Source: an uncultured Atribacterota bacterium
GTDB lineage: Bacteria; Atribacterota; Phoenicimicrobiia; Phoenicimicrobiales; Phoenicimicrobiaceae
Assembly: GCA_964438695.1 (NCBI GenBank)
Contig: CAYTKP010000003.1
Location: forward strand, 1-54,172
Length of the DNA: 54,172 bases
Reading direction: 5' to 3'
The notes beneath the pieces were generated by a model. The model did no database searches. It worked only from the letters and a program-made list of their open reading frames with translations, and had not been told where the DNA came from. This document shows, one piece after another, positions 9,406 through 44,684 of this stretch (positions are counted from its first letter, which is position 1; each line of letters begins with the position of its first letter). The translations under genes were made by a program, and so were the position numbers.

Positions 9406-10437
9406 ATGAAGAAGAAAGATATTAAAGATTTTACTTTAGATGAATTAAAGAAAAAATTTGAAGATTTAGGAGAAAAAAAATTTAGAGCAACTCAGTTATT
9501 TTTTTGGGTTTATAAAAAAGGTACAGAAGATTTTAATGATATGTCTGATCTTCCCGTAGTATTTAGAAAATTTCTTCACAACAACTTTTATCTTAGCAAT
9601 ATAGAATTATTAAAATTTGTTAAATCTAAAGACAAAACTGAAAAGTACCTGTTAAGATTAGAAGATGGAAGTGTAATAGAAACTGTTCTAATATTTTCAA
9701 GTAGGGGGAGGATAACTGAATGTATTTCCTCGCAAGTCGGGTGTAAATATAATTGCTTATTCTGTGAAAGTGGCAAAAAAGGTTTTACCAGAAACCTTAC
9801 GGTTAGCGAGATTTTAAATCAAGTTTTATTTGTTAAGAAAAAGATGCAGTCTAATCCTCACAATATTGTTTTTATGGGGATTGGGGAACCTTTAGATAAT
9901 TACGATAATGTTATAAAAGCAATTTGTATATTAAATTCCAAAGAGGCCTTTAATATTGGAGCAAGAAAAATCACTATTTCTACCTGTGGGATAATACCGG
10001 CAATAAGAAAGTTACAAGAATGTAATTGGCAGGTAGAATTATCAGTATCTCTTCATGCCTCCGAAAACAAATTAAGGTCTTATTTGATGCCAGTTAACAA
10101 TAAATACCCTTTATATGACTTAATAGAAGTTTGTAAAAATTATGTGAAGAAAACAAATAGGCAAATTACTTTCGAATATATTTTGATTAAAGGAATAAAC
10201 GATTCTCTTAATTATGCTGATAAATTAGCTAGACTAATTGGAGGATTTAATTTTAAGGTAAATTTAATCACTTTTAATCCTACTTCTGGTTCTCTGCTAC
10301 AATCGCCTGATATTTCACAAATTAAATCCTTCAAGGAAAAGTTATTAGTTAAAAAAATCCCTACTACTATAAGAATATCTAAGGGCAGTGATATATCTGC
10401 TGCCTGTGGTCAACTAAAGAGTCTTTATCTAAAATGA
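9406..10437 (+). CDS. rlmN: 23S rRNA/tRNA adenine-C2 methyltransferase, radical SAM
   Basis: FRATQLFFWVY N-terminus, radical-SAM CKYNCLFCESG, and C-terminal SAACGQL. Confidence 0.92.
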   Translation: MKKKDIKDFTLDELKKKFEDLGEKKFRATQLFFWVYKKGTEDFNDMSDLPVVFRKFLHNNFYLSNIELLKFVKSKDKTEKYLLRLEDGSVIETVLIFSSRGRITECISSQVGCKYNCLFCESGKKGFTRNLTVSEILNQVLFVKKKMQSNPHNIVFMGIGEPLDNYDNVIKAICILNSKEAFNIGARKITISTCGIIPAIRKLQECNWQVELSVSLHASENKLRSYLMPVNNKYPLYDLIEVCKNYVKKTNRQITFEYILIKGINDSLNYADKLARLIGGFNFKVNLITFNPTSGSLLQSPDISQIKSFKEKLLVKKIPTTIRISKGSDISAACGQLKSLYLK

Positions 10438-10627: not shown

Positions 10628-10703
10628 GGGCCCATAGCTCAGCTGGTAGAGCAACCGGCTCATAACCGGTCGGTCCCTGGTTCGAATCCAGGTGGGCCCA
10701 CCA
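10628..10703 (+). tRNA. tRNA with CAU anticodon (elongator Met, or Ile2 if lysidine-modified), with encoded CCA
   Basis: Hand-folded cloverleaf: acceptor GGGCCCA/TGGGCCC, D arm GCTC-AGCTGGTA-GAGC, anticodon arm ACCGG-CTCATAA-CCGGT, T arm CCTGG-TTCGAAT-CCAGG, discriminator A, CCA. G1-C72 pairs, so it is not an initiator. Confidence 0.9.
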
Positions 10704-11692: not shown

Positions 11693-12150
11693 CTTATAAG
11701 TAGACCAGGTAATCGCGGAAGAAGAATAATTTCTTTCGAGGAAAGTCCGAGCTCCGTAGGGCAAAGTGCTGGGTAATCCCCAGTGAGGGTGACCTCAAGG
11801 AAAGTGCTACAGAAAATATACAGCCTGGTACCCAATCCCAAAATTAATTAGAAAAGATAGTTTTAAGTTTAAAAAATGAATAAAAAAGATTTTTTAAAAG
11901 TAATTTAATCTCAGGATTGAGTGCCGGGTAAAGGTGAAAAGGTAGGGTAAGAGCCTACCAGTTGTTAGGTGACTAACAAGCTTAGTAAACCCCACTTGGA
12001 GCAAGACCAAATAGGAAGAGTTGTGGTGGCCCGCTGAATCTTCGGGTAGGTCGCAAGAGGTGTAAAGTAATTTACATCCCAGAGAGATGATTACCGCCCC
12101 TATCATTAATAGATAAGGGAACAGAACTCGGCTTATGGTCTACTTATAAG
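11693..12150 (+). ncRNA. rnpB: RNase P RNA, bacterial type A
   Basis: P1 pairing CTTATAAGTAGACC / GGTCTACTTATAAG. Conserved P4 strands GAGGAAAGTCCGAGCTC and ACAGAACTCGGCTTA. GGTAAAGGTGAAAAGGTAGGGTAAGAGCCTACC module. AT-rich extension of ~75-95 nt in the P12 position. Confidence 0.92.
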
Positions 12151-29249: not shown

Positions 29250-29696
29250 ATGAAATGCCCATTTTGTGATTATGGCGATACCGGAGTTATTGAATCCAGG
29301 CAAATAGAAAATGAATCTGTAGTCAGAAGGAGAAGGATTTGTAAGAAATGCAATAGGAGATTTACTACTTATGAGAGAATAGAATTAATTCCTTTAATGG
29401 TAGTAAAAAAAGATGGACGTAGAGAGCCTTTTTCTCGCGAGAAGATTACTAATGGCATTATTAAGGCCTGCGAAAAGAGACCTATTAGTATAGAAACTAT
29501 TAATAAATTAGTAAATAAGATTGAAGAAAAATTAAAAAATGAAACTCCAGATGAAGTAAGTAGTAGTATTATTGGAGAATTAGTTATCTCTGAATTACGA
29601 ACATTAGATGAAGTAGCCTATGTGAGATTTGCTTCTGTATATAGACAATTTAAAGACGTAAATAGTTTTGTAAAAGAGATAAATAAGCTTACCTAA
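29250..29696 (+). CDS. nrdR: transcriptional repressor NrdR
   Basis: MKCPFC...CKKC zinc ribbon followed by an ATP-cone (VVKKDGRREPFSREKI). Confidence 0.95.
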   Translation: MKCPFCDYGDTGVIESRQIENESVVRRRRICKKCNRRFTTYERIELIPLMVVKKDGRREPFSREKITNGIIKACEKRPISIETINKLVNKIEEKLKNETPDEVSSSIIGELVISELRTLDEVAYVRFASVYRQFKDVNSFVKEINKLT

Positions 29697-29749
29697 CCAT
29701 AAAATATTAATTCAATATTGCAACTGCATTTAGAATTGGGGGATACAAG

Positions 29750-32194
29750 GTGCTAAAATCAATTATAAAAAGAGAAGGCAATATCGTAGAGTTCAATGAA
29801 AATAAGATAACTTATGCAGTATTAGCCGCGATGCAATCAGTTGGGGAGAAAGATCAGGATGTTGCAAAAAAAATTACTGAACAAGTAGTTAATAAATTAG
29901 AAGAAATTTATAAAGATAAAATTCCTCAGGTGGAAGAAGTTCAAGATGTAGTAGAAGAGACTTTGATTAGGGGAGGAATGGCAAAAGTTGCCAAAGCCTA
30001 CATATTATATCGAGATAAGAGACGTAGAATTCGAGAAAAATTAAAAGTGAGGAAAAAAATACAAAATCATAGAAGTACAACTGATATCTCTTTATTAGTT
30101 TCCACAACAACTTCTGAAAATATTTCCCCTTGGAATAGACAGAAAATCATTCAAGCTCTGACAAAAGAAGCGGAGTTGCCCTTAAATATTTCCAGAAGTA
30201 TTGCCAAAGCAGTAGAAGAAAAAATATTTGACTTAGATTTAAATGAGATATCTACTTCCTTGATTAGGGAATTAGTGGATAATGAATTGTTTATTCGAGG
30301 ATATGAACATAAATGGAAAAAACAAAAGGTTATAGGAATGCCTACTTATGATTTGACCCAGCTCTTTTTCTCTAAAACTAAAGAGAATAGTAATATAGGA
30401 AATAATAATCCAGAAGCTATTAATTTAGCTATCGCTGAAAATACTATTAAGCAATATATGTTACAAGAAGTATTTTCGCGGGAAGTAGCTCAAGCTCATT
30501 TAAAAGGCTGGATTCATATTCATGATTTAGGTTACCCCCGAATTTATTGTTCCGGTCATTCACTTGAATATTTAAAAAAATATGGTCTTGAGTTAGATAA
30601 TCTGGATACCTCTTCCGCACCAGCAAAACATACCCGAACTTTAACTGGGCACTTGAATACGTTTCTAGCTTCAATGCAGGCGTATTATGCAGGTGCATTG
30701 GGCATTGGGTATTTGAATATTATGTATGCCCCCTTTTTAGTAAATTTATCTTTTAAGGAGATAAAACAGGAAGCCCAATATTTAATTTTTAGTGGCTCAC
30801 AAAATGCTTTTTCCAGAGGGGGGCAAAGTCTTTTTCTTGATTTCAATGTCCATCTTGGTATCCCGGACTACCTTAAAGATGTTCCGGCAATTGGACCTGG
30901 AGGAAAGTATACTGGAAAGAATTATGGGGAATATGAGAAGGAATCTCAATTATTTTTAAAGGCTTTAATGGAGGTCTGGAGAGAAGGTGATTGCCACGGA
31001 AAGGTATTTGCTTTTCCCAAAATGGACTTGCATATTGATAATGATTCTTTTCGGGACCCTGAGCAGAAAAAATTATTAAAATATGCTTGTCAGATAGCTT
31101 CGGAAAATGGATCGCCATATTTTATTTTTGACAGAGATGATATAAGTATGGCAGCCTGTTGTAGGTTGAAAACCAAAATAACAGACAAAGAAATGATATT
31201 AAAACCTGAAAAATTAAGATTTGCAGGGATACAAAATGTTACTATTAATTTACCTCAGTGTGCCTATAGAGCCTTTTGCAATGTAGAAGCTGTTGAAGAG
31301 AACTTTAAGGATAATGGTCAAAAAAAGAGTCTTGATTTATTTTTTAAAAAAGTTGATCAAGCCATTAAATTAGCAATTCAAGCACATCTAGAGAAAAAAG
31401 ATTTTTTGAAAGCGATGATGAAAAATCCAAATGGTCCTTTATGGCAGATAGGTAAGATAGCAAAAGATGGAAGTCCTTATGTAGATTTAGATAAGGGAAC
31501 TTACTTAGTAGGCTTGATTGGACTAAATGAGGCTGTTCAATATCTTATAGGTGAGGAATTACATGAGAGTGAAAATGCCTATAAACTAGGATTAAAGATT
31601 ATATCATTTATGAGTTTAAAATGTAGCGAATATAGTGAGAAGTATAATTTAAAATTGTCTTTAGAAGAATCTCCTGCTGAAAGCGCAGCTGGAAGATTAG
31701 CTAAAATTGATTTACAAGAGTTTCCGGAAAGCAGAAAAGTTATAAAAGGCAATCCTGAAATTGATGAATGTTATTATACTAATAGCATTCATTTTGCTGC
31801 TTCAGCTCAGATAGATTTAATAACTCGAATCATTAAACAAAGTAAATTTCATCCCTTGATTAAAAGTGGGGCAATAATTCATGCTTTTGTAGGGGAACAC
31901 CAACCTTCCCCCGAAAGCATATATAATTTAGTCAAAAAAGTTTGGGAGCATACTCAATGTTCGCAACTTACTATTTCCCCTGAATTTACCGTATGTAATT
32001 TATGTAATAAAGTAAGCAGAGGGCTAATAGAGAATTGTAGTAATTGTGGGAGCCAGGATGTGTATGGAATTACCAGGATAGTGGGTTATTTTAGTAAAAT
32101 ATACAATTGGAATAAAAATAAAATTGGTGAACTAAAAGATCGACATTCTGGAAATTATAGAGTAGATACACAAAAAAAAGAAATTTATTTATAA
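29750..32194 (+). CDS. nrdD: anaerobic (class III) ribonucleoside-triphosphate reductase
   Basis: Two N-terminal ATP-cone-like segments. C-terminal Zn ribbon CNLCNK...CSNCGS, followed by the glycyl-radical motif TRIVGYFS. GTG start after GGGGGA. Confidence 0.9.
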   Translation: MLKSIIKREGNIVEFNENKITYAVLAAMQSVGEKDQDVAKKITEQVVNKLEEIYKDKIPQVEEVQDVVEETLIRGGMAKVAKAYILYRDKRRRIREKLKVRKKIQNHRSTTDISLLVSTTTSENISPWNRQKIIQALTKEAELPLNISRSIAKAVEEKIFDLDLNEISTSLIRELVDNELFIRGYEHKWKKQKVIGMPTYDLTQLFFSKTKENSNIGNNNPEAINLAIAENTIKQYMLQEVFSREVAQAHLKGWIHIHDLGYPRIYCSGHSLEYLKKYGLELDNLDTSSAPAKHTRTLTGHLNTFLASMQAYYAGALGIGYLNIMYAPFLVNLSFKEIKQEAQYLIFSGSQNAFSRGGQSLFLDFNVHLGIPDYLKDVPAIGPGGKYTGKNYGEYEKESQLFLKALMEVWREGDCHGKVFAFPKMDLHIDNDSFRDPEQKKLLKYACQIASENGSPYFIFDRDDISMAACCRLKTKITDKEMILKPEKLRFAGIQNVTINLPQCAYRAFCNVEAVEENFKDNGQKKSLDLFFKKVDQAIKLAIQAHLEKKDFLKAMMKNPNGPLWQIGKIAKDGSPYVDLDKGTYLVGLIGLNEAVQYLIGEELHESENAYKLGLKIISFMSLKCSEYSEKYNLKLSLEESPAESAAGRLAKIDLQEFPESRKVIKGNPEIDECYYTNSIHFAASAQIDLITRIIKQSKFHPLIKSGAIIHAFVGEHQPSPESIYNLVKKVWEHTQCSQLTISPEFTVCNLCNKVSRGLIENCSNCGSQDVYGITRIVGYFSKIYNWNKNKIGELKDRHSGNYRVDTQKKEIYL

Positions 32195-32219
32195 TAAATT
32201 AGAAAGGGCTAAAAGTATT

Positions 32220-32483
32220 ATGAAAGTAAAAATATTCTGGCAAAAAAATTGCCCTAATTGTCCAAAGGCTAAAAAATTAGGAAAACAGTTAGAAGAAAAA
32301 AATATATTAGTACAATATTTTGATGTAAATACAGTCGATGGATTAACTGAGGCTTGTTTATATGATATTTTATCTACCCCTTCTTTGGTAATTACCGACA
32401 AAGATGATAATGAGATTAAAGCATGGAAAGGTCAGGTTCCTTTTTTAGAAGAGATTGTAAAGGAAGTAGTTTATCAAAAATGA
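32220..32483 (+). CDS. small thioredoxin/glutaredoxin-fold protein (CPNC active site)
   Basis: 87 aa with the pattern KIFWQKNCPNCPKAK...STPSLVI, as in thioredoxin-fold redoxins. Wedged between nrdD and nrdG. Confidence 0.6.
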   Translation: MKVKIFWQKNCPNCPKAKKLGKQLEEKNILVQYFDVNTVDGLTEACLYDILSTPSLVITDKDDNEIKAWKGQVPFLEEIVKEVVYQK

Positions 32484-33190
32484 TAATAAAGAGAATGATT
32501 GATACTTCGCTAATCGATTGGGAGGGTAAAATTGTATCCACCTTATATGTATCTTCTTGTAATTTTCGCTGCCCCTTTTGCTATAATTATGATTTAGTAT
32601 TAAATCCTAATAATTTCTCCAATATCTCCTCCAAAGAAATAGATAGTTCTCTCCTGGAGAGAAAAAAATTTATCGATGGTATATGTATGAGTGGTGGAGA
32701 GCCTACATTATATCCAGATTTACCTACATATTTTAAAGGAATCAAGGAAAAAGGATTTTTAATTAAGTTAGATACTAATGGTACGAATCCTAAATTATTA
32801 GAAGAACTTTTAAATGATGAGTTAATAGATTATATTGCTATGGATATCAAGTCCTCACTGAATTTTAGTGATTATGCCAGGGCAGCTGGCATCAAAGATA
32901 AAATATTATTAGAGAGAGTAAAAGATAGTATTAGATTAATTATGAGCTCGCAAATTGAATATGAATTTCGTACTACTGTTGTTCCTTTGTTACATACGGA
33001 AAAGACTATTATAGAAATTGCTAAATATATTTCAGGGGCAAAGAAGTATGTCTTGCAGAATTTTTCTCCTTCAGAAAGTACCCTTGAACCTTCTTTTCAA
33101 AAGATGAAGCCTTATTCCAGTGAAAAGCTCGTAGAACTGTCTGAGAAGGCTAAAGAGTACGTTCCTAATTGTTATTATAGATTAAGTTAG
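32480..33190 (+). CDS. nrdG: anaerobic RNR activating enzyme (radical SAM)
   Basis: SLIDWEGKIVSTLYVSSCNFRCPFCYN (CxxxCxxC) and GGEPTL. ATG 32480 forms an ATGA overlap with the upstream stop; the ORF-track start at 32423 was rejected. Confidence 0.85.
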   Translation: MIIKRMIDTSLIDWEGKIVSTLYVSSCNFRCPFCYNYDLVLNPNNFSNISSKEIDSSLLERKKFIDGICMSGGEPTLYPDLPTYFKGIKEKGFLIKLDTNGTNPKLLEELLNDELIDYIAMDIKSSLNFSDYARAAGIKDKILLERVKDSIRLIMSSQIEYEFRTTVVPLLHTEKTIIEIAKYISGAKKYVLQNFSPSESTLEPSFQKMKPYSSEKLVELSEKAKEYVPNCYYRLS

Positions 33191-33379: not shown

Positions 33380-33543
33380 GTCTTTATTGAGAAAAAAATA
33401 AAGAAGTCGAAGAGGTAAAATGCTAAAGTATCTAAACTATAAGGTAAAGCGAACATTACCTTATAGAAGGCTGGAAAGTTTTTTAATAAACACCGAAGGG
33501 GTAATTTTCAATATTTTGGAAAAATCTCTCAGGTAAAAAGATA
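33380..33543 (+). promoter_or_regulatory. glycine riboswitch: one well-conserved aptamer preceded by a degenerate or ghost aptamer
   Basis: Aptamer at ~33467-33543: CTGGAAAG (33471), CACCGAAGGGGTAA (33491-33504), P3 hairpin TTTTC/GAAAA, and CTCTCAGGTAAAAAGA (33526-33541). These match the GGAGAG / CACCGAAGGGGCAA / CUCUCAGGCAAAAGGAC core. Upstream there is a degenerate copy (GTCGAAGAGGTAA 33406-33418; CTATAAGGTAAAGCGAAC 33437-33454) and an 11-bp hairpin (33437-33466). Confidence 0.7.
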
Positions 33544-33581
33544 GGGTAAAGAAATTTTGTGGAAATTTCTTTACCCTTTTT
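33544..33581 (+). terminator. riboswitch expression-platform terminator
   Basis: Perfect 14-bp stem GGGTAAAGAAATTT/AAATTTCTTTACCC plus TTTTT. Its 5' arm abuts or overlaps the 3' end of the aptamer, consistent with a glycine-ON design. Confidence 0.75.
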
Positions 33582-33614
33582 AATTTAAAAAATTTTTAGA
33601 AAGGAAGAGATAGT

Positions 33615-34442
33615 TTGAACCGAAATTTTAAGTTAGAAGAATCTGGACAAATAAAATATCTAAAATGTAGACCATTAGATAACACCGACTTGGTAATCAA
33701 TGCTTTTACCACTCGCTTGGGTGGAGTAAGTAAATATCCCTTTGATAGCTTGAATTTATCTTATAATATTGGCGATAAAGAGAGTTGTGTTGTAGAGAAC
33801 AGAGAGATAATTGCTAATATTTTGGGTATCAGTTATCGAAATATTGTATCTGCACAACAAATTCACAGAGATAAAATAACTGTGGTTAGAGAAGAAGATA
33901 AAGGAAGAGGAGCTTTCAAATATACTAAGGCTTTAGCAGAAACTGATGCTTTAATTACCAATGTCTCTAGAATTCCGCTTTTAATGTGTTATGCTGATTG
34001 TGTACCAATTTTTATCTTAGATCCCATCAAGAAAGTTATTGGATTAATCCATAGTGGAAGGAGAGGGACGGAACTGCAAATAACTTCAAAGACCTTAAAT
34101 AAGATGCAAGAAATATTTGACACAAATCCTCAATCTTGCTTAGCTGCTATTTTTCCTTCCATTGGTCCGTGTTGTTACAAGATTAAAAATCAAAGTCGAA
34201 TTAATGATTATTGGATGAACAAGAATAATTTTAGCCATAAAATAGTCTCTATACAAAACGAAAATGAACTAAGCCTTGATTTAAAAAAAGCAAATTATTT
34301 ACAGCTAATCAAAGGTGGAATAGAAAAAAAGAATATTTTTGTTAATGAAATTTGTACAGCAGATTATCCAAAACTTTTCTTCTCTTACCGAAGAGATAAA
34401 GGAAATACAGGCCGTATGGCTGCTATCTTTATGTTAAAATAA
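33615..34442 (+). CDS. pgeF: YfiH/PgeF (YlmD) family protein: peptidoglycan editing factor / purine nucleoside phosphorylase-laccase domain
   Basis: FTTRLGGVS, SLNLS, AQQIHRDK, DALITN, CYADCVPI and IHSGRRG motifs of DUF152/YfiH. TTG start after AGGAAGAG. Confidence 0.8.
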   Translation: MNRNFKLEESGQIKYLKCRPLDNTDLVINAFTTRLGGVSKYPFDSLNLSYNIGDKESCVVENREIIANILGISYRNIVSAQQIHRDKITVVREEDKGRGAFKYTKALAETDALITNVSRIPLLMCYADCVPIFILDPIKKVIGLIHSGRRGTELQITSKTLNKMQEIFDTNPQSCLAAIFPSIGPCCYKIKNQSRINDYWMNKNNFSHKIVSIQNENELSLDLKKANYLQLIKGGIEKKNIFVNEICTADYPKLFFSYRRDKGNTGRMAAIFMLK

Positions 34443-34467: not shown

Positions 34468-34773
34468 ATGCGAATAAAAGAACATCCTATCTTAGAGTTT
34501 AATCCAGGGAGAAAAATAAGATTTTATTTAGACGGAAAAGAGATGGAAGGCTACGAAGGAGAACCAATTGCTTCCGCCATAGTTGCTGCTGGAGTAAAGG
34601 TATTAAGTAGGAGTATTAAGTATCATCGACCTCGAGGATTCTTTTGTGCTATAGGCAAATGTTCATCTTGTCTAATGAAAGTAAATGGCATCCCTAACGT
34701 AAGGACTTGCGTAACTAAATTGGAAGAAGGGATGAAGATTGAGACTCAAAAAGGGAAAGGTGATTTCAATTGA
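34468..34773 (+). CDS. (2Fe-2S)-binding subunit (SoxA N-terminal / HcnA-like)
   Basis: 101 aa with YHRPRGFFCAIGKCSSCLMKVNGIPNVRTCVT, the Fer2_4-type cysteine pattern. Confidence 0.7.
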   Translation: MRIKEHPILEFNPGRKIRFYLDGKEMEGYEGEPIASAIVAAGVKVLSRSIKYHRPRGFFCAIGKCSSCLMKVNGIPNVRTCVTKLEEGMKIETQKGKGDFN

Positions 34774-35873
34774 AAGAGACTGATATATTAATTATCGGAG
34801 GAGGCCCAGCAGGATTATCGTCAGCAATTTATGCAGCCTCTTTAGGAGCGAAAATAACCTTAATTGATGACGGTTTAGAATTGGGTGGTCAATTGATCAA
34901 GCAGACCCATAAATTTTTTGGTTCGGAGGCACAGTTTGCGGGGATTAGAGGAATAGAGATTGCTAAAAAATTGATTCAGGAAATCGAAAAATATGGAAAT
35001 ATTGAACTGATTACCAATTCAACTGTCACTGGATATTACGAAGATGAGGTTATTACCATTGTCCAGGGAATCGATGGCAGTGTATTAAAAAAACTAAAAG
35101 CCAAAAGAATTATTGTCGCTACTGGTGCCTCAGAAAATATGCTACCTTTTTTAAATAATGATTTGCCAGGAGTCTATGGAGCTGGGGCTGTCCAAACTCT
35201 AATGAATCTTTACGGGGTAGTCCCAGGGAATAATGTTTTGATGATAGGAGCAGGTAATATAGGTTTAATTGTCAGTTATCAACTTTTGCAAGCAGGGATT
35301 AAAGTAGCAGCAGTTGTGGAGGCTCTCCCCCGGATAGGTGGTTATCTGGTTCATGCCTCCAAAATCAGGCGTTTAGGGGTGCCTATATATACTTCTTGTA
35401 CCTTAAAAGAAGTGTATGGAACAAATTGTGTAGAAAAGGCAGTAATTTCTGAGATTAACAAAAATTATGAATTTATACCGGGAACAGAAAGAGAGCTCGA
35501 AGTAGATACTATTTGCCTGGCTGTGGGGCTATCTCCGCTTTCTGATCTCCTCTGGCAGGCTGGTTGTCAGATGAAGTATATTCCTGAGCTCGGTGGTTAT
35601 GTTGCTCTAAGGGATGAAAATATGAAAACAACCAAAGATAACATTTATATTGCCGGTGATGTTGCCGGGATTGAAGAAGCTAGCAGTGCTATGTTAGAAG
35701 GGCAAATTGCTGGCTTGAATGCAGCTGTTAGCTTAGGATTAAAATGTGGTAATTATCTAGAGCGAAATAGAAAATTAAAGGAAGAATTAGGGGCATTGCG
35801 GGCTAACCCTTTAAGCAAGAAGATAAAGGTAGGAATAAAAAAAGCTTTAATTAAGGGGGAGGGGGATTGGTAA
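34770..35873 (+). CDS. FAD/NAD(P)-binding pyridine nucleotide-disulfide-family oxidoreductase subunit
   Basis: DILIIGGGPAGLSSA (FAD), VLMIGAGNIGL (NAD) and IYIAGDVAG. TTG start overlaps the upstream stop (TTGA). Confidence 0.75.
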   Translation: MKETDILIIGGGPAGLSSAIYAASLGAKITLIDDGLELGGQLIKQTHKFFGSEAQFAGIRGIEIAKKLIQEIEKYGNIELITNSTVTGYYEDEVITIVQGIDGSVLKKLKAKRIIVATGASENMLPFLNNDLPGVYGAGAVQTLMNLYGVVPGNNVLMIGAGNIGLIVSYQLLQAGIKVAAVVEALPRIGGYLVHASKIRRLGVPIYTSCTLKEVYGTNCVEKAVISEINKNYEFIPGTERELEVDTICLAVGLSPLSDLLWQAGCQMKYIPELGGYVALRDENMKTTKDNIYIAGDVAGIEEASSAMLEGQIAGLNAAVSLGLKCGNYLERNRKLKEELGALRANPLSKKIKVGIKKALIKGEGDW

Positions 35874-36370
35874 TGTTAGAAAGAACTGGAATTCCTACTG
35901 AGGATGATTTAAAGAAAGTAATTCCAGATAAAGAAAGATTGGCGAAAGGACCAGTAGTTATAGTAGAATGTTTCCAGAAGATACCCTGTAATCCTTGTGC
36001 CATATCCTGTAAATTTGGGGCAATAAAACCATTTGAGGACATTAATGATTTACCTCAGGTTGATTTTGATAAATGTACTGGTTGCGGAATCTGCATTAGT
36101 TCTTGTCCCGGTCTTGCCATATTTGTGATAGATGAAAATTATTCAGACAAAGAAGCTTTAATTAAATTGCCATATGAAATGTTACCCTTACCCCAAGAAG
36201 GAGAAGAGGTTTATGCTTTAGATAGAGCTGGGGAAGTAGTTGATAAGGTTAAAGTAGTAAAGGTTCAAAAGATTAAAAATAAGACCAACATAATTTCTAT
36301 ATTAGTTCCCAAAAATATGTCAATGACAGTTAGGAGTATAAAAGTGGAGGGTAAAAATAATGAAGGATGA
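35867..36370 (+). CDS. 4Fe-4S ferredoxin-domain subunit
   Basis: CNPCAISC and CTGCGICISSCP cysteine motifs. Overlaps both neighbours, suggesting translational coupling. Confidence 0.65.
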   Translation: MVMLERTGIPTEDDLKKVIPDKERLAKGPVVIVECFQKIPCNPCAISCKFGAIKPFEDINDLPQVDFDKCTGCGICISSCPGLAIFVIDENYSDKEALIKLPYEMLPLPQEGEEVYALDRAGEVVDKVKVVKVQKIKNKTNIISILVPKNMSMTVRSIKVEGKNNEG

Positions 36371-36632
36371 TGTCATAATTTGCCGATGTGAAGATATAAC
36401 CTGGGGGGAAATAAGAAGGGCATTAGAAAAAGGTTATACTACTCTCGATGAAATAAAAAGAATTACTCGAGCTGGTATGGGAAGGTGTCAGGGTAAAACT
36501 TGTCAGAGGATCATACTTAATGAAATTGCCAAATTCTGTCATAAAAAAATAGACGAATTGCCTATATCTACCTTTAGACCTCCTACCAAACCAGTGAAAT
36601 TAGGAACCTTGGCAGGTGATGATGATGATTAA
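36360..36632 (+). CDS. BFD-like (2Fe-2S)-binding small subunit
   Basis: ICRCEDIT ... GMGRCQGKTC pattern of BFD-like [2Fe-2S] domains. Confidence 0.7.
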   Translation: MKDDVIICRCEDITWGEIRRALEKGYTTLDEIKRITRAGMGRCQGKTCQRIILNEIAKFCHKKIDELPISTFRPPTKPVKLGTLAGDDDD

Positions 36633-37770
36633 AAATGCTGATATAGTTATAATTGGCGGTGGAGTAATCGGTTGTAGTATTGCCTATAACTTATCTAAAT
36701 TAGGGGCTGAAGATATAGTATTATTAGAAAAGAATACTTTAGCCAGTGGTTCAACCGGCAGATGTGGAGCAGGAATCAGACAACAGTTTGGTACTGAAAT
36801 GAACTGTATCCTGGCCCGAGAGAGTATTAAGATTTTTGAGAATTTAAGTGAAGAACTGGATTATGATATTGAACTTAATCAGGGGGGTTATTTAATCTTG
36901 GCTTATACTGAAAAAGAAGTTAATCAATTTAAGAAAAATGTAGCCCTGCAACAATCTTTAGGTATAGATTCCAAATTTATTACAGTTAAAGAAGCCAAAG
37001 AGATTGCTCCACCTCTAGATACAGAAGGTGTATTGGCTGCGACTTTTTGTTCTACTGATGGTCATGCAGATCCCTTTAAAACCAACTTTGCCTATGCGGA
37101 AGCAGCTAAGAGGTTGGGGGTAAAGATATATACCTTTACTGAAGTAAAAGAGATTGATACAAAGAACAACAGGATAGTGGCAGTTAATACAAATAAAGGG
37201 AAGATATTTACTTCAATTGTAGTAAATGCGGCTGGAGGATATTCAGGAGTAATCGGAAAAATGGCAGGATTGGATTTACCAGTCTATTCCCAACGACATC
37301 AAATATTAATTACTGAACCAGTCGATCCCTTATTTCAGCCAATGTTAATGTCTTTTTCTCATAATTTCTATTGTCAGCAGACCCCTCACGGGAGTATAAT
37401 AATGGGTTTTGGTGACCCGAATGAACCTAAAGGATATAATATAAGCTCGAGTTGGCAGTTCGCTCGAGAGATGGCTCAAAAAATGACTGCAGTAGTACCT
37501 TTATTAAAAGAGGTGAGTATGGTAAGACAATGGGCTGGTCTATATAATGTTAGTCCTGATGCCCAACCAATCTTGGGAGAACATCCTAAAATGAACGGTT
37601 TTTATATGGCAATAGGATTTAGCGGACACGGATTTATGTTAGCCCCGATAACTAGTAAGTTAATTGCAGAATTAATATTAAACGGTAGGACATCTTTATC
37701 TATTGAAGATAAATTAGATATTGGGAGATTTGAAAGAGGAGAACTAATTCTTGAACCTTCAGTAGTTTAA
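36616..37770 (+). CDS. DAO-family FAD-dependent amino-acid dehydrogenase/oxidase subunit (SoxB / HcnC / ThiO / PDH-beta-like)
   Basis: DIVIIGGGVIGCSIAYNL dinucleotide fold and GFSGHGFMLAP near the C-terminus. 384 aa. Confidence 0.8.
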   Translation: MMMMIKNADIVIIGGGVIGCSIAYNLSKLGAEDIVLLEKNTLASGSTGRCGAGIRQQFGTEMNCILARESIKIFENLSEELDYDIELNQGGYLILAYTEKEVNQFKKNVALQQSLGIDSKFITVKEAKEIAPPLDTEGVLAATFCSTDGHADPFKTNFAYAEAAKRLGVKIYTFTEVKEIDTKNNRIVAVNTNKGKIFTSIVVNAAGGYSGVIGKMAGLDLPVYSQRHQILITEPVDPLFQPMLMSFSHNFYCQQTPHGSIIMGFGDPNEPKGYNISSSWQFAREMAQKMTAVVPLLKEVSMVRQWAGLYNVSPDAQPILGEHPKMNGFYMAIGFSGHGFMLAPITSKLIAELILNGRTSLSIEDKLDIGRFERGELILEPSVV

Positions 37771-37998
37771 AAGTGCACAAAATAGTAATTTACTAGGAAG
37801 ACAATGTATAACCTATTAAAAATATTTTTGACTTTTGAGAAATATTCATCCTGTGAATTTGTAGAAAAGATAAAAAATTTTATATTTATATATGGGTAAA
37901 AAGAAGGATTTTTTAATTTTTTATAGAACTAATAATATGTTATATAATATAAGATTGGTGATTTTAATAGAAAGTCACCAAGAAAAAAGGTTTCTCGC

Positions 37999-38042
37999 AT
38001 TTTGCAAGATTCTTAATTAACAAGGAATAATATTTTGCAAGA
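37999..38042 (+). repeat. two direct ATTTTGCAAGA 11-mers, 33 bp apart, upstream of the Liv transporter
   Basis: Copies at 37999-38009 and 38032-38042, flanking a TTAATTAA palindrome. Confidence 0.35.
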
Positions 38043-38174
38043 AACTAATGATAAAAAAGAAGGAGGTGAAGTATTTACTAAAATAACTTAAAAGAAAATA
38101 TAATTATCAGATAGTTTATCAAGCCTATAGGTTTTAGTAATTTTTTATTTTAAAAAATAAAAGGAGGATTAAAG

Positions 38175-39341
38175 ATGAAAAGTATTAAATATTTATTAGT
38201 TATTAGTTTGTTAATATTCGCTTTTAGTGTAACTTGTTCAGGTGTAATGGCGGCAGATAAGCCACCAGTTGTAATTGGGCTTCAGGGACCGATAACTGGA
38301 GCCTGGGCATATGAAGGTCAAATGGCGAAACAATCTTGTGAGATAGCAGCCCAATTAATTAATGAAAAAGGTGGTATTTTAGGTGGTAGAATGATTGAAC
38401 TTAGAGTAGCTGATGACGCCTGTGAACCAAAAGCAGGAGCTTTAGCAGCAATGAAGCTAATTTCTCAGAAGGATGTAGTAGCTGCTATTTCGACTTATGG
38501 TTCATCAGTATGCGAACCTGCTTCTAATCTTTATGAAAAGTTTAAGAAAGTTAATATTGCTTATGGGGCAACTGCTGTTCGTTTAACTGAAAGAGGATTG
38601 AAGTACTTTTTCCGAACTTGTGGTATTGATAGTGCCCAGGGTATTTTCTTTGCGGATTATGTTCCCAGAGTTTTTGGAGCAAAGAGAATAGCTATTATAC
38701 ATGATAATACTACCTTTGCTAAAGGAGTTGCCGAAGAGACTAAAAAAGCATTGCAATCAAAGGTTGATGCGGGAGAAGTAGAGATAGTATATTATGATGC
38801 TATTACTCCAGGTGAGAAGGATTTCTCTGTTCCTTTAACTAAAGTTAGAGAGACCAATCCAGATGTCCTCTACTTTACTGGTTATTATCCCGAAGCTGCC
38901 TTAATAGTATCTCAAGCTCGAGATATAGGTATTACTTGTCCCTTTGTCGGGGGTAACGCGGCTATCAATGATGAATTTGTAAAAATTGCTGGGATAGAGA
39001 AGGCAAAAGGATGTTTTATGACTCAAGAACCTATGCCAGCAGAACTTCCCTACCCAGAATCAAAGGTATTTTTAAAAGCATATAAAGCGAAATATGGAGA
39101 AATACCTTCCAGCCCCTGGCCAGTATATGCTGCTGATGCCTTAAATATTATTGCTTACGTAATTGATAAAACCGGTTCTACCGATTCTGATATTTTGGCA
39201 GAGTATCTGAGAAATGAAGTTGATGGTGTTCCAGGAGTTACTGGTTCAATCGGTTTTACGGAAAAAGGAGATAGGGAAGGAGTTCCGTATCTAATGTATG
39301 TAGTAAACGAAGAAGGTGGCTTCGATATTTACAATAAATAA
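38175..39341 (+). CDS. ABC transporter substrate-binding lipoprotein, LivJ/LivK (branched-chain/amino-acid) family
   Basis: Signal peptide with a lipobox-like FSVTCSG, and type I periplasmic-binding fold motifs (VVIGLQGPITG, YFTGYYPE). Confidence 0.85.
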   Translation: MKSIKYLLVISLLIFAFSVTCSGVMAADKPPVVIGLQGPITGAWAYEGQMAKQSCEIAAQLINEKGGILGGRMIELRVADDACEPKAGALAAMKLISQKDVVAAISTYGSSVCEPASNLYEKFKKVNIAYGATAVRLTERGLKYFFRTCGIDSAQGIFFADYVPRVFGAKRIAIIHDNTTFAKGVAEETKKALQSKVDAGEVEIVYYDAITPGEKDFSVPLTKVRETNPDVLYFTGYYPEAALIVSQARDIGITCPFVGGNAAINDEFVKIAGIEKAKGCFMTQEPMPAELPYPESKVFLKAYKAKYGEIPSSPWPVYAADALNIIAYVIDKTGSTDSDILAEYLRNEVDGVPGVTGSIGFTEKGDREGVPYLMYVVNEEGGFDIYNK

Positions 39342-39360
39342 AAAAGTAAAGGGGTAAAAG

Positions 39361-40272
39361 ATGAGAATTTTTTTGGAGCAGATGATAAATGGACTAACAA
39401 TCGGGTCTTTTTATGCTTTAATTGCCTTAGGGTATTCTATGGTATATGGAGTAATGAAACTAATTAATTTTGCTCATGGAGATTTATTTGCTCTAGGTTC
39501 TTACCTCGGATTTACCCTTCTTGTATGGGGAAATGCCTATGTGACCACAAATTTTGGCTTAGCAGGAGGAATGATTGCGGCTATATTAATAGCCGCAATC
39601 GGCATAGGTGTGGCTGGAATATTGGTTGAGCGGATAGCCTACCGCCCGATTTATCCAGCAGGGCGGCTTCCCGCAGTCGTTTCTGCTTTAGGTGTATCAA
39701 TTATTTTAGAAAATATGATTATGGTAATCTGGGGTCCACGTTATCAGGCTTATCCTGTAGATGTTGTACCTGCAGCACGTTTTGAAATAGGTGGAATTCA
39801 TATCACACTTCTTCAAATAATTATTTTAATTCTGTCTTTTGCATTATTAGCTTTCTTATATTATGTAATTCAAAAGACAACTTTTGGGGCAGCTATTAGG
39901 GCTTCAGCTCTGGATAGGGATACTGCTGCCTTAATGGGAATAAATATAAATACTGTAATATTTTTTATTTTTGCTTTAGGTCCTGCTTTAGGTGGAGTGG
40001 CTGGAGTTATGGTAGGAATGTATTATCGTCAAATAAGTTTTACTATGGGTTGGAACTACGGATTAAAAGCTTTTACTGCTACAATTTTAGGGGGTATTGG
40101 CAATATCCCAGGGGCAATGGTGGGAGGACTTCTTTTAGGAATCTTTGAAATGTTAGGTTCTGCCTATATTTCCACAGCTTATAAGGATGTCTTTGTGTTT
40201 TTAATCCTGATATTAGTTTTAATCTTTCGTCCCAGAGGTCTTTTGGGTGAAAAAGTTGCGGAAAAGGTGTAA
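39361..40272 (+). CDS. livH: branched-chain amino acid ABC permease LivH-type
   Basis: LNGLTIGSFYALIALGYSMVYGV..INFAHG N-terminus typical of LivH. Confidence 0.88.
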   Translation: MRIFLEQMINGLTIGSFYALIALGYSMVYGVMKLINFAHGDLFALGSYLGFTLLVWGNAYVTTNFGLAGGMIAAILIAAIGIGVAGILVERIAYRPIYPAGRLPAVVSALGVSIILENMIMVIWGPRYQAYPVDVVPAARFEIGGIHITLLQIIILILSFALLAFLYYVIQKTTFGAAIRASALDRDTAALMGININTVIFFIFALGPALGGVAGVMVGMYYRQISFTMGWNYGLKAFTATILGGIGNIPGAMVGGLLLGIFEMLGSAYISTAYKDVFVFLILILVLIFRPRGLLGEKVAEKV

Positions 40273-40284
40273 GGGGGTAAATAA

Positions 40285-41268
40285 ATGAAATTAAATGGAA
40301 ATACTATTTTTAAGAACTGGCCTATTTTTATAGTAGTATTATTATTAGCAGTGTCCCCTTTTATAATGAATAATTATTGGATTGATGTCTTCTTTTTCTT
40401 CGGAATTTATGCTCTTTTAGGCTTAAGTTTGAATATTGTTTTAGGAGAAGTAGGGTTATTTGATTTGGGGCATATGGGATTTATGGCTATTGGTGCCTAT
40501 GCTACTGCTATTCTTAATACTCATTTTGGTATTCCCATAATATTTTTAATGCCAGTTAGTGCTCTGGCAGCAGCTGGTTTTGCCTGGTTAGTCTGTTCCC
40601 CTATCATTCATTTGCGAGGGGATTATCTTTGCATTGTTACTATTGGTATGGGAGAAATTGTAAGATTAACTCTTATCAATAATCCCTTTGGTATTACTGG
40701 AGGGCCAAATGGAGTTTTTGGAATAGATTTTCTTTCTTTTGGAGGCCCTTTAGTAATTGATACTTCTATTGAATCTTACTTTGTAATTTGGATAATAGTA
40801 GGATTGACCGTTCTCGCTCTTATTAATTTACAGCGTTCCCGAATAGGCCGAGCATGGAATTGTATTCGAGAAGATGAAATCGCTGCTGAATCAACTGGAA
40901 TCGATGTCAGACACTATAAACTGTTGGCTTTTATTTTAGGCGCGGGCTTAGCCGGAGTAGCTGGCAATATATATGCCAGTAAATTAATGATTGTATCTCC
41001 CGAGAGTTTTACTTTTATGGAATCCTGTATGCTTTTCTGTATAGTTCTTATTGGAGGAATGGGATCTATCCCCGGGGTATTGATAGGTTCTGCAGCTGTC
41101 AGTCTTTTCCCCGAAGTATTTCGAACATTTGCCCAGTATCGGATGTTGATATTTGGGGTAGCAATGGTGGTTATGATGATCTTTAGGCCCGGTGGCATCT
41201 GGCCCAGGAAGAGGGGAGCAATTGAATTTAAATCACTTTTACCAAAGGCAGGAGAAGACAATGTCTAA
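40285..41268 (+). CDS. livM: branched-chain amino acid ABC permease LivM-type
   Basis: GEVGLFDLGHMGFMAIGAY and ITGGPNG motifs. Confidence 0.88.
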   Translation: MKLNGNTIFKNWPIFIVVLLLAVSPFIMNNYWIDVFFFFGIYALLGLSLNIVLGEVGLFDLGHMGFMAIGAYATAILNTHFGIPIIFLMPVSALAAAGFAWLVCSPIIHLRGDYLCIVTIGMGEIVRLTLINNPFGITGGPNGVFGIDFLSFGGPLVIDTSIESYFVIWIIVGLTVLALINLQRSRIGRAWNCIREDEIAAESTGIDVRHYKLLAFILGAGLAGVAGNIYASKLMIVSPESFTFMESCMLFCIVLIGGMGSIPGVLIGSAAVSLFPEVFRTFAQYRMLIFGVAMVVMMIFRPGGIWPRKRGAIEFKSLLPKAGEDNV

Positions 41269-42115
41269 GGATAGTAATTGCAATATTGAAATAGTAAACA
41301 AAGCTGAAAACGAAATTAAAGAGATTAATGAACTTAATGAAGTTATTTTGCAAACTGTAAAATTAACTAAAAAATTTGGCGGCTTAATTGCAGTAAATAA
41401 TTTTGATTTAAAAGTAAATCGGGGAGAAATTAGTAGTCTGATAGGTCCTAATGGAGCGGGGAAAACCACTGTTTTTAATGTGGTTACTGGTATATATCAA
41501 GCTGATGGAGGGAAAGTCGTATTTAAAGGGGAAGACCTTGCCGGGAAAAAACCCCACCAAATCGTTGAAAAGGGCATTGCTCGTACTTTCCAAAATATTA
41601 GGTTATTTAATAATATGACTTGCTTAGAAAATGTAATGGCTGGCAAGCACTGTCGAAGTAAAGAAGGTGTAGGGTCTTCTATTTTTAGAACTTTTTCGCA
41701 GAGGAAGGAAGAATCAGAAATTCGAGAAATTGCCAAAAGACGCCTTCAACAGGTAGGGCTATGGAAATATCGAGATGAGTTAGCAAAAAATATTGCTTAT
41801 GGCAATCAAAGGATGTTGGAAATTGCCCGAGCTTTAGCTTCTAATCCTAATTTATTGATTTTAGATGAACCAAGTAGTGGTCTAAATGATAAAGAATCGG
41901 AAGATCTGGTAAAATTTCTTAGAGATTTATTAAAAGAAAATCTGACTATTTTACTTATTGAGCATGATATGAATGTGGTTATGGGGATTTCTGACTGGGT
42001 AACAGTAATGGACGAAGGAAAGAAAATTGCCGAAGGTAAACCAGAAGAAGTTTACCATAATCCAATTGTAATTGAGGCATATCTTGGTAAAGAGGAAGAA
42101 GAGGAGGAGGGCTAA
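41261..42115 (+). CDS. livG: ABC ATPase LivG-type
   Basis: Walker A GPNGAGKTT, signature YGNQRMLEIARAL, Walker B LLILDEPSSG. ATG 41261 is preceded by AGGAGAAG; the ORF-track start at 41192 was rejected. Confidence 0.88.
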   Translation: MSKDSNCNIEIVNKAENEIKEINELNEVILQTVKLTKKFGGLIAVNNFDLKVNRGEISSLIGPNGAGKTTVFNVVTGIYQADGGKVVFKGEDLAGKKPHQIVEKGIARTFQNIRLFNNMTCLENVMAGKHCRSKEGVGSSIFRTFSQRKEESEIREIAKRRLQQVGLWKYRDELAKNIAYGNQRMLEIARALASNPNLLILDEPSSGLNDKESEDLVKFLRDLLKENLTILLIEHDMNVVMGISDWVTVMDEGKKIAEGKPEEVYHNPIVIEAYLGKEEEEEEG

Positions 42116-42120
42116 AAGAT

Positions 42121-42858
42121 ATGAGTGTGCTGTTTAAGGTTAATGATTTACATATATTCTATGGTTCTATTGAAGCACTTAAAGGTATTTCTCTGGAAGT
42201 TAATAAAGGTGAAATAGTGACAGTTTTAGGGGCAAATGGTGCAGGAAAGAGTACTCTTTTGAGGGCAATTTCTGGTTTATTACCTATAAAAAAAGGAAAA
42301 ATCCAATTTGAGGGAAAAGAGCTCAATAATGTTTCAGCCTTTAAAATAGTTATGAGAGGTATTTCTCATGTCCCCGAAGGTCGAAAAGTATTTGCAACTC
42401 TTACTGTAGAGGAAAATCTTAATTTAGGAGCCTTTATCGATAGAAAAAATATAAAATTGGTTAAGGAAAGAAAAGAAAGAGTATATAATCTATTCCCAAT
42501 TTTAGAAAAAAGAAAGAACCAATTATCTGGGACGCTTTCTGGTGGAGAACAACAAATGTTGGCTATTGGAAGAGGTTTAATGAGTAATCCCAAGATGCTG
42601 CTTTTAGATGAGCCTTCTCTGGGTTTAGCTCCCTTATTGGTGAAACAAATTTTTAAAATAATCTATGAAATAAATAGCCAGGGTATTGCAATATTATTAG
42701 TAGAACAGAATGCCCGTAAAGCACTTAGTATAGCTCACCGAGGATATATTTTGGAAACTGGAAATATTTCAATTAGCGGATTATCTTCAGAATTAAAAAA
42801 TAACCAAAAAGTTCAAGAGGCTTATTTGGGAGGCGCTGCTCTGAAAAATATTAAATAG
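42121..42858 (+). CDS. livF: ABC ATPase LivF-type
   Basis: Walker A GANGAGKST, signature LSGGEQQMLAIGRGL, Walker B LLLDEPSLG. Confidence 0.88.
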   Translation: MSVLFKVNDLHIFYGSIEALKGISLEVNKGEIVTVLGANGAGKSTLLRAISGLLPIKKGKIQFEGKELNNVSAFKIVMRGISHVPEGRKVFATLTVEENLNLGAFIDRKNIKLVKERKERVYNLFPILEKRKNQLSGTLSGGEQQMLAIGRGLMSNPKMLLLDEPSLGLAPLLVKQIFKIIYEINSQGIAILLVEQNARKALSIAHRGYILETGNISISGLSSELKNNQKVQEAYLGGAALKNIK

Positions 42859-43987: not shown

Positions 43988-44012
43988 TAATTTTGGGGTA
44001 GTTAAAGATAAT

Positions 44013-44684
44013 CTGGAGATAATAAATAAAAGAATAAAAGAAGCAGCTTTAAGAGTAAATAGAAATCCCGATGGAATTAAGTTAGTAGCAGTTACTAAAA
44101 CTGCTACTATAGAACAGATAAAAGAAGCAATAGATGCAGGAGTAAAAATTATTGGTGAGAATAGAGTGCAGGAAGCGAAGGAAAAATATCAAATGCTAAC
44201 TGATGATATAGAATACCACTTAGTAGGTCACTTGCAAACTAATAAAGCAAAATATGCTGTGGAATTGTTTGATTTAATTCATTCTGTAGATAGTGTGAAA
44301 TTAGCTAAAGAAATAGAGAGGCGGTCCATACAGTGTAATAGAATTGTGGATATATTAGTTGAGGTAAATGTATCTGGTGAAGAAACTAAATATGGAATTA
44401 GACCTGAAGAAGTGGAACTTTTTATAAGAGAGATTTCTAGATTTTCTGGAATAAGGGTAAAAGGTTTAATGACTATTGCACCTATTGCCCAAAATCAGGA
44501 GAAAGTCCGTCCTTATTTTAGAAAACTTAGGGAATTAAGTGAGCAGATAAATGATATGAATATAGAAAATATAAAGATGGAATACCTTTCCATGGGAATG
44601 ACAGATGATTTTGAGGTTGCCATTGAGGAGGGTTCTAATATGGTTAGAATCGGCAGAGGGATATTTAGTTTAAAGAAAAATTGA
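44013..44684 (+). CDS. yggS: YggS/YlmE PLP-homeostasis protein (start codon unresolved)
   Basis: KLVAVTKT (PLP lysine), GENRVQE, HLVGHLQTNK and LSMGMTDD. The frame is open from 43956, but the first ATG/GTG/TTG is GTG 44166, downstream of the PLP lysine. 44013 is a CTG; TTG 43993 with a good RBS is one base out of frame. Confidence 0.75.
   Translation: MEIINKRIKEAALRVNRNPDGIKLVAVTKTATIEQIKEAIDAGVKIIGENRVQEAKEKYQMLTDDIEYHLVGHLQTNKAKYAVELFDLIHSVDSVKLAKEIERRSIQCNRIVDILVEVNVSGEETKYGIRPEEVELFIREISRFSGIRVKGLMTIAPIAQNQEKVRPYFRKLRELSEQINDMNIENIKMEYLSMGMTDDFEVAIEEGSNMVRIGRGIFSLKKN

Follow-up and report, generated by a model that had tools for sequence, protein, structure and literature searches.

The locus described here raises the question of which substrate is oxidized by an enzyme complex whose genes lie behind a glycine riboswitch. 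In a stretch of 54,172 nucleotides (nt) from an uncultured Atribacterota bacterium (JS1-type; contig CAYTKP010000003.1), referred to as the window throughout, five consecutive open reading frames (ORFs) for iron–sulfur and flavin proteins follow pgeF, a peptidoglycan editing factor gene that is itself preceded by the riboswitch. An earlier note on this DNA took this placement to indicate glycine or sarcosine as the substrate and proposed a new anaerobic glycine dehydrogenase. The comparisons presented below point to a different enzyme: the five ORFs probably encode a bacterial version of the heteromeric L-proline dehydrogenase of Thermococcales, built from five polypeptides because the alpha subunit is split in two.

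The five ORFs (S1 to S5; Table 1) are tightly packed, adjacent ones overlapping by 4–17 nt (4 nt between S1 and S2), and family searches recovered the domains that the earlier note had named, namely Fer2_4, Pyr_redox_2, Fer4, a BFD-like/A3 domain and DAO. The predicted subunit order is alpha(N), alpha(C), gamma, delta and beta. S2 comprises two dinucleotide-binding folds, with two GxGxxG motifs in its translation, and matches both PH1363 (PDB 1y56_A; 73 bits) and SoxA. The cysteines of S3 would be enough for two 4Fe-4S clusters, and S5 probably starts at 36622, given that its homologues are 381–382 amino acids (aa) long. The SoxA family model (996 positions) was covered only at positions 14–99 (by S1), 169–486 (by S2) and 522–599, and S1, S2 and S4 together correspond to approximately the first 600 residues of SoxA. 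Family-library scans of the five ORFs detected neither a folate-binding domain of the GcvT type nor a match to the SoxG and SoxD families, the small ORFs being Fer2_4, Fer4 and BFD/A3 proteins; the missing folate-binding C-terminal half of SoxA argues against a sarcosine-demethylating enzyme. The beta subunit is 95–97% identical to proteins from ‘Candidatus Atribacteria’ metagenome-assembled genomes (MAGs), and the genome loci nearest to the window are likewise from Atribacterota MAGs; its exact sequence had no match in the contig index. Public records label these genes ‘sarcosine oxidase subunit beta’ or ‘FAD-dependent oxidoreductase’.

When the beta subunit was compared with solved structures, the best match was PDB 1y56_B, the L-proline dehydrogenase beta subunit of Pyrococcus horikoshii (328 bits, E 6e-97, 44% identity), against 159 bits for SoxB, 148 for dimethylglycine dehydrogenase and 116–132 for glycine oxidases. 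Scores of 221 bits with TIGR01373 (SoxB) and 155 bits with TIGR02352 (ThiO) fell below the cutoffs of these models (529 and 251, respectively), and the opine oxidase beta subunit of the Ti plasmid matched the window beta at 25% identity and 75 bits. Among the likenesses listed in the earlier note, that to the archaeal alpha-beta-gamma-delta L-proline dehydrogenase is the apt one. A glycerol-3-phosphate dehydrogenase complex of the GlpA type was considered as well and rejected, as GlpA models reached only 69–83 bits on the beta subunit.

The alpha-beta-gamma-delta L-proline dehydrogenase of Thermococcus is encoded in the order pdhA (alpha), pdhF (gamma), pdhX (delta) and pdhB (beta) in T. profundus and T. 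litoralis, and the archaeal enzymes have been characterised as dehydrogenases (PMC4364671; PMC8704557). This dye-linked enzyme of Thermococcales, found in T. profundus and as a second complex in P. horikoshii, has the same four modules in the same order as the window: a DAO-fold beta subunit, an FAD/NAD(H) alpha protein resembling the N-terminal part of SoxA, a ferredoxin-type gamma subunit of ~19 kDa and a delta subunit of ~8–10 kDa. The window differs in that alpha is divided between two ORFs (101 aa and 367 aa), the host is a bacterium, anaerobic and either mesophilic or psychrophilic, the cassette stands behind a riboswitch-controlled pgeF, and the activity is a predicted one. The archaeal type is defined by L-proline:acceptor oxidoreductase activity in beta and NADH dehydrogenase activity in alpha; for the window, the P5C (pyrroline-5-carboxylate) dehydrogenase genes at 27 orthologous loci lend indirect support to this prediction. 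A Thermococci locus (L071) carries the same gene series, with 62%, 52%, 47%, 44% and 55% identity to S1–S5. Its alpha subunit is a single 475-aa protein, residues 1–100 of which are 62% identical to S1 and the rest 52% identical to S2, which bears out the earlier suggestion that alpha-type functions are split over small proteins; the gene in its gamma position is 47% identical to S3 over 154 aa.

Residue conservation in the beta subunit is consistent with this assignment. Of the 103 columns conserved at ≥90% in the other 76 family members, the window beta retains 99, and at two of the four deviating positions (F58 and D152) it has the residue seen in the characterised archaeal enzyme; its sequence gives no sign of a changed substrate specificity. 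SoxB deviates at 54 of the same columns. The beta subunit of the P. horikoshii 1y56 enzyme (PH1363/PH1364), an alpha4-beta4 complex of two subunit types only, without gamma and delta, deviates at 28 and is for this reason regarded as a sister type and not as an orthologue. Where SoxB has the motif AKHDHVAW, the window beta reads HADPFKTN and the archaeal proline enzyme KADPFEAT, and a histidine in this region of SoxB is what we take to be the attachment site of covalent flavin mononucleotide. In a neighbour-joining tree, the DAO subunit falls in one clade with beta subunits linked to P5C dehydrogenase, clearly away from SoxB, which lay outside on a long branch; the P5C dehydrogenase-linked members were spread over the whole clade, with those of Atribacterota nested within it.

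Gene neighbourhoods were compared by a genome scan with a 12-sequence beta alignment, restricted to one genome per species, which yielded 80 loci with 50–85% identity to the beta subunit, 75 of them outside Atribacterota; neighbouring ORFs were clustered, and the commonest clusters were identified. All five functions occurred in the same order at 64 of the 75 non-Atribacterota loci, and at 45 of these complete loci they were five separate ORFs. The others showed fusion of gamma and delta (9 loci), of alpha(C) and gamma (7), of alpha(C), gamma and delta (2) or, in an archaeon, of the alpha pieces (1), and a split alpha subunit is thus the rule in bacteria. Cassettes of this family occur in strict anaerobes from many phyla, among them Bacillota, Thermotogota, Atribacterota, Izemoplasmatales and Zixibacteria. 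The commonest neighbour was L-glutamate gamma-semialdehyde (P5C) dehydrogenase (TIGR01236; score 779 bits, cutoff 614), present at 27 of the 80 loci and, at 22 of these, on the same strand within 300 nt. A PrdR-like sigma-54 activator was found at 12 cassette loci, mostly just upstream, an aldehyde:ferredoxin oxidoreductase with a small ferredoxin at 9, and the Xaa-Pro dipeptidase PepQ at 5, and half of the loci had at least one of these four neighbours. Dipeptidases and oligopeptide or amino acid ABC transporters were further neighbours, and no glycine cleavage or glycine reductase gene occurred among the recurrent ones. This set is the signature of a proline-to-glutamate pathway, and in most bacteria the cassette usually belongs to a proline-to-glutamate operon.

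The glycine riboswitch did not accompany the cassette outside the phylum. Rfam gathering-score scans found no RF00504 in 24 non-Atribacterota cassette loci, and a motif search together with a custom covariance model (R1) found no glycine riboswitch in all 75. R1 had been built from Atribacterota aptamers and served only as a supplement to Rfam: its consensus structure is poor (10 pairs) and biased towards aptamer 2, and it missed even the first aptamer of L002. A weak R1 match in L057 (27.9 bits) was unconfirmed by Rfam. Hence the co-occurrence of cassette and RF00504 in other genomes, which the earlier note had suggested as a check, was absent from the loci covered beyond Atribacterota, where orthologous cassettes are linked to the proline pathway; this is the pattern that the note itself had named as counter-evidence to its reading.

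Two subsets of these loci deserve separate description. The loci with aldehyde:ferredoxin oxidoreductase (L008, L009, L014, L016, L020, L032, L063, L065 and L072), in which the small ferredoxin gene usually comes first, include 7 of 9 without P5C dehydrogenase in the fetched flanks, and the oxidoreductase may represent ferredoxin-dependent oxidation of glutamate semialdehyde. Five other loci (L034, L056, L059, L066 and L069) encode a beta subunit of the same family (53–56% identity) with no alpha or gamma genes upstream; a delta-like ORF alone precedes beta in four of them and none does so in L034. These five loci may represent a different type of complex.

If the complex in the window works as its archaeal counterpart does, the beta subunit, with its DAO fold and FAD, would oxidize L-proline to P5C. 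From there, the Fe-S clusters in delta, gamma and alpha(N) would relay electrons to the flavin and the NAD(P)-binding site of alpha(C), a path drawn by analogy with the archaeal enzyme.

Table 1. Predicted features of the window, with the cassette first, followed by the riboswitch region and other features.
Feature	Coordinates	Strand	Evidence or remark
Alpha subunit, N-terminal piece (S1); 2Fe-2S protein, Fer2_4; 101 aa, 4 Cys	34468..34773	+	Fer2_4, 115 bits
Alpha subunit, main piece (S2); FAD/NAD(P)H oxidoreductase; 367 aa	34770..35873	+	Pyr_redox_2, 132 bits
Gamma subunit (S3); PdhF-like, ferredoxin-type; 167 aa, 8 Cys	35867..36370	+	Fer4 family matches
Delta subunit (S4); PdhX-like, BFD-like 2Fe-2S protein; 90 aa	36360..36632	+	SO_alpha_A3, 60 bits; Fer2_BFD, 49 bits
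Beta subunit (S5); PdhB-like DAO-family flavoprotein	36616..37770	+	DAO, 261 bits
Decayed aptamer 1 of ancestral tandem glycine riboswitch	33380..33460	+	Alignment with tandem riboswitches of relatives; fold
Glycine riboswitch aptamer, second of ancestral tandem	33461..33554	+	RF00504
Intrinsic terminator (expression platform)	33543..33582	+	Terminator scan, fold, conservation in relatives
pgeF (ylmD/yfiH), peptidoglycan editing factor	33615..34442	+	TIGR00726; Cu-oxidase_4
LivKHMGF-type amino acid ABC transporter	38175..42858	+	Peripla_BP_6 and ABC_tran matches
nrdR-nrdD-(87-aa ORF)-nrdG, anaerobic ribonucleotide reductase block	29250-33190		Inserted between ftsZ and pgeF
tRNA gene	10628-10700		
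Bacterial class A RNase P RNA	11697-12150		299 bits

The riboswitch itself is a worn-down form of the tandem riboswitch of related genomes, with an intact terminator. The RF00504 match at 33461-33554 on the plus strand scored 45.5 bits against a gathering score of 32 in Rfam; the core of this second aptamer (CACCGAAGGGGTAA...CTCTCAGGTAAAAAGA) is intact, and its P1 stem is weakened and includes non-canonical pairs. Alignment with the tandem riboswitches of relatives revealed that the core of aptamer 1 has changed from GCCGAAGGGGCAA to GTCGAAGAGGTAA and from CTCTCAGGCAAAAGGAC to CTATAAGGTAAAGCGAAC. The stretch concerned had no Rfam match and now folds mostly as an 11-bp hairpin, making it a possible ‘ghost aptamer’. 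Downstream, a terminator hairpin of 15–16 bp (33543-33577) followed by TTTTT is present in both the minimum-free-energy and the centroid folds, with a z-score of -5.5, and is conserved in relatives. Its 5′ arm shares sequence with the 3′ strand of aptamer P1, an arrangement that corresponds to the usual ON-switch design, with glycine binding predicted: at high glycine, the aptamer would form, the terminator would not, and transcription would enter pgeF. The tandem riboswitch of relatives also resembles RF03166, although its 88.8 bits fall short of the gathering score of 110 for that model.

The gene behind the terminator was assigned as pgeF by the TIGR00726 equivalog (181.4 bits against a cutoff of 141.15) and by Pfam Cu-oxidase_4 (245 bits), and it occupies the ylmD position of the ftsZ...ylmE-divIVA cluster. 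In Bacillus, pgeF (ylmD) is normally the gene directly before ylmE, and the cassette, the transporter and phoU therefore look inserted between the two in the window. PgeF cleaves misincorporated Gly or L-Ser from UDP-MurNAc precursors (PMC12280929) and S. aureus requires it to tolerate glycine (bioRxiv 10.64898/2026.06.08.730841); neither source mentions a riboswitch. Glycine induction of pgeF would be mechanistically sensible because PgeF removes the glycine wrongly inserted into peptidoglycan precursors. The known glycine riboswitch regulons (gcvT/gcvP and glycine transporters) share the aptamer family, the ON logic through a terminator and the response to excess glycine; unlike in these, the first controlled gene here is pgeF, which encodes a peptidoglycan proofreading amidase. 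We found no literature linking glycine riboswitches to pgeF, yfiH or ylmD, nor any linking them to sarcosine oxidase or Atribacteria.

As the earlier note had stated, the cassette begins only 25 nt after pgeF with no terminator between them. This spacer carries an AGGGGG ribosome-binding site, and the terminator scan found no terminator-like site from 33577 up to a weak 6-bp site at 35523, inside the second cassette gene. Given the short gap, the lack of a terminator and the recurrence of the same arrangement in related genomes, the proposed membership of the cassette in the riboswitch operon is likely: transcription would very probably continue from pgeF through the five cassette genes, which in this lineage are probably co-transcribed by read-through. 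Promoter-like matches in and around the cassette were at chance level (37 found, 38 expected) and thus uninformative on a promoter of its own.

The relation between riboswitch, pgeF and cassette was further followed in a pgeF-centred scan of metagenome contigs, in which genes and aptamers were tagged and negatives were rechecked with Rfam; all counts refer to assessable loci. Riboswitch, pgeF and cassette occurred together at 36–37 Atribacterota loci, most of which have tandem riboswitches, with L126 having a singlet like the window. At two loci (L092 and L138), a tandem riboswitch and pgeF are followed by phoU-ylmE-divIVA, without cassette or transporter. Conversely, pgeF and cassette lacked a riboswitch at 12–13 loci, including L081 and L082, whose cassette proteins are 93–98% identical to those of the window, and pgeF stood alone at one locus. 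A riboswitch directly before the cassette was found at none of the Atribacterota loci: every riboswitch found adjoins the 5′ side of pgeF, a pairing seen in the window, in L002, L092, L105 and L138 and in about 45 further Atribacterota loci. In L001, which retains an intact cassette, the riboswitch has been lost and pgeF survives as a remnant (5290-5760) that lacks ~400 nt internally, aptamer 2 and the terminator being deleted as well, and in L005 the cassette directly follows nrdG, without pgeF or riboswitch. Taken together with the scans of cassettes outside the phylum, this distribution suggests that the glycine riboswitch is primarily a regulator of pgeF; since it tracks pgeF and the beta subunit keeps the proline-linked family residues, the inference of a glycine or sarcosine substrate from riboswitch placement does not hold.

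Two side observations concern these loci. L126 looks like a singlet intermediate. In L082, the closest relative of the window, the spacers on either side of the cassette (5870-5960 and 9450-9800) both contain palindromic GGGCACGATGCATCGTGCCC-type repeats; these look like repetitive extragenic palindromic (REP) elements or elements of the miniature inverted-repeat transposable element (MITE) type and would account for the longer spacers of this locus.

Several points weigh against the assignment to proline oxidation and against a regulatory role of the riboswitch centred on pgeF. The case for L-proline as the probable substrate rests on 44–55% identity to archaeal enzymes and on gene neighbourhood, and a characterised bacterial member of the cassette family was not found in the literature. 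No P5C dehydrogenase or aldehyde oxidoreductase lies beside the cassette in any Atribacterota locus, nor elsewhere in the window, so that the proline-to-glutamate route is incomplete in the DNA examined. Reduction of NAD+ by proline is thermodynamically uphill, which makes both the electron acceptor and the direction of the reaction uncertain. The Rfam model was run on 24 of the 75 outside loci, the others being covered by the motif search and the narrow custom model. Finally, riboswitch, pgeF and cassette have stayed together in ~70% of the Atribacterota loci that could be assessed, so glycine control of the cassette may have been selected and not be accidental, and the riboswitch–pgeF loci without a cassette (L092 and L138) could be recent deletions.

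The alternative that survives best takes up this last point. It accepts the same proline dehydrogenase and holds that glycine control was itself selected, pgeF and the cassette forming one functional glycine regulon, in which glycine would either signal Gly/Pro-rich peptides or collagen-like substrates or serve as a Stickland-type electron acceptor. The arrangement recurs in most Atribacterota loci over pgeF identities of 65–86%, often with a pgeF–cassette spacer of ~30 nt, and an amino acid ABC transporter always follows the cassette (for example in L001, L004, L005, L082 and L085), as would suit such a regulon. Nevertheless, the loci with pgeF and cassette but no riboswitch, the decay of the riboswitch in the window, and pgeF–cassette spacers that range from 4 to 476 nt and leave room for separate promoters speak against it, as does the lack of any riboswitch-linked cassette outside the phylum among the loci scanned. 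The Stickland version finds no backing in the literature, where a search on glycine reductase in Atribacteria gave nothing; searches linking Atribacteria to sarcosine oxidase, proline dehydrogenase, glycine cleavage or Stickland metabolism likewise returned nothing relevant. We regard selected control as a real but minority possibility.

The glycine dehydrogenase put forward earlier is considerably harder to maintain. It would be an anaerobe-type enzyme converting glycine to glyoxylate (or acting on sarcosine) with transfer of electrons through Fe-S clusters to NAD(P) or ferredoxin, induced by the riboswitch to remove excess glycine. The position of the cassette behind a glycine-ON riboswitch with no intervening terminator, the retention of the riboswitch–pgeF–cassette order within the phylum, and the inclusion of the glycine and sarcosine enzymes ThiO, SoxB and HcnC in the DAO family all agree with such a function. 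The beta subunit, however, groups with proline dehydrogenase beta and shares nearly all conserved positions with members linked to P5C dehydrogenase, glycine oxidases score far lower, and the GcvT-like folate domain, SoxG and SoxD are missing, as are both histidines of the SoxB motif. The Rfam scans of 24 outside cassettes and the motif and custom-model searches of all 75 yielded no riboswitch, and cassettes persist without one in Atribacterota, even in the closest relatives of the window. We therefore consider a new glycine dehydrogenase very unlikely and the proposal unsupported.

Still less can be said for the view that the cassette is a three-subunit relative (HcnABC, opine oxidase or D-hydroxyproline dehydrogenase) or a sarcosine oxidase broken into more pieces, to which we give hardly any credence. 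HcnABC, opine oxidases and D-hydroxyproline dehydrogenase have been grouped as relatives of the archaeal proline dehydrogenases (PMC4575208), and they share with the window the small 2Fe-2S protein, the Pyr_redox_2 protein with a BFD-like domain and the DAO protein; but they consist of three genes in another order and have no Fer4 subunit, whereas the window encodes a separate ferredoxin-type gamma as in the archaeal enzyme. In the Ti-plasmid opine oxidase, the member of this group that was compared, the three genes run beta-gamma-alpha next to an arginase gene, and the beta subunit is the distant match reported above. As for heterotetrameric sarcosine oxidase SoxABGD, S5 is SoxB-like and S1, S2 and S4 resemble the start of SoxA, but the window has an extra ferredoxin-type subunit and none of the folate/GcvT domain, SoxG and SoxD; the SoxB score is less than half that of the archaeal proline enzyme, and SoxB departs from the family at about half of the conserved columns. 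Oxidase function is also unlikely because the hosts are anaerobic.

Equally improbable is operation in reverse, in which NAD(P)H or reduced ferredoxin would drive P5C to proline, for example as an osmolyte: the unfavourable reduction of NAD+ by proline and the missing P5C dehydrogenase beside the Atribacterota cassettes are compatible with it, but cassettes elsewhere adjoin catabolic genes (P5C dehydrogenase, PepQ, dipeptidases and oligopeptide transporters), an uptake transporter follows the cassette in the window, and the archaeal enzymes were characterised as dehydrogenases.

The remainder of the window places the cassette in a cell-division cluster with the gene order ftsA, ftsZ, nrdR, nrdD, a small redoxin-like ORF, nrdG, riboswitch, pgeF, the five cassette genes, livKHMGF, phoU, ylmE, divIVA and ileS. 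The 87-aa ORF before nrdG looks thioredoxin- or glutaredoxin-like from its translation, and the 255-aa ORF called as nrdG overlaps it by ~60 nt, so that the real nrdG start is probably further downstream. At ylmE (YggS-type, 43992-44684), the frame is open for ~58 codons before the first ATG/GTG/TTG (44166), and this extra stretch aligns with a full-length homologue in L092. The true start of ylmE is therefore probably further upstream, which would imply an unusual start codon or an overlap with phoU. The LivKHMGF-type transporter is separated from the beta-subunit gene by a 404-nt spacer; it is probably expressed from a promoter of its own and probably serves to take up the substrate. This spacer contains conserved blocks (window 37771-38174, L001 9150-9499, L085 4725-5023 and L133 6634-6984), one of which is AAGAAGGATTTTTTAATTTTTT, and an invariant GGAGGTGA stands ~110 nt before the livK start. 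It had no Rfam match and may contain a promoter followed by a leader, or else a regulatory element of an unknown kind.

For the biology of JS1-type Atribacterota, the boldest consequence would be that one tandem glycine riboswitch switches on both PgeF and an Fe-S/flavin proline dehydrogenase, with glycine gating the oxidation of proline, be it because glycine signals a Stickland-type acceptor or because the complex has gained a side activity on glycine or sarcosine; we think this improbable. Glycine control of the cassette may have been selected, or it may be a side effect of the site at which the cassette landed. The cassette represents a known kind of enzyme that is new in its bacterial, split-alpha form, and recognizing this averts a wrong annotation, as the riboswitch makes it easy to mistake the genes for those of a novel enzyme acting on glycine. 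Strict anaerobes would thereby harbour a widespread bacterial counterpart of the archaeal alpha-beta-gamma-delta proline dehydrogenase, for which we found no characterisation in the literature and which offers a lead for anaerobic amino acid catabolism and for the real electron acceptor of this enzyme. The link between riboswitch and pgeF is the more notable result and may matter more than the cassette, since it fits the role of PgeF in glycine removal and glycine tolerance. A riboswitch before pgeF would provide independent natural evidence for the glycine-removal role of PgeF and, if the predicted regulation is true, would be the first known case of peptidoglycan proofreading under riboswitch control.

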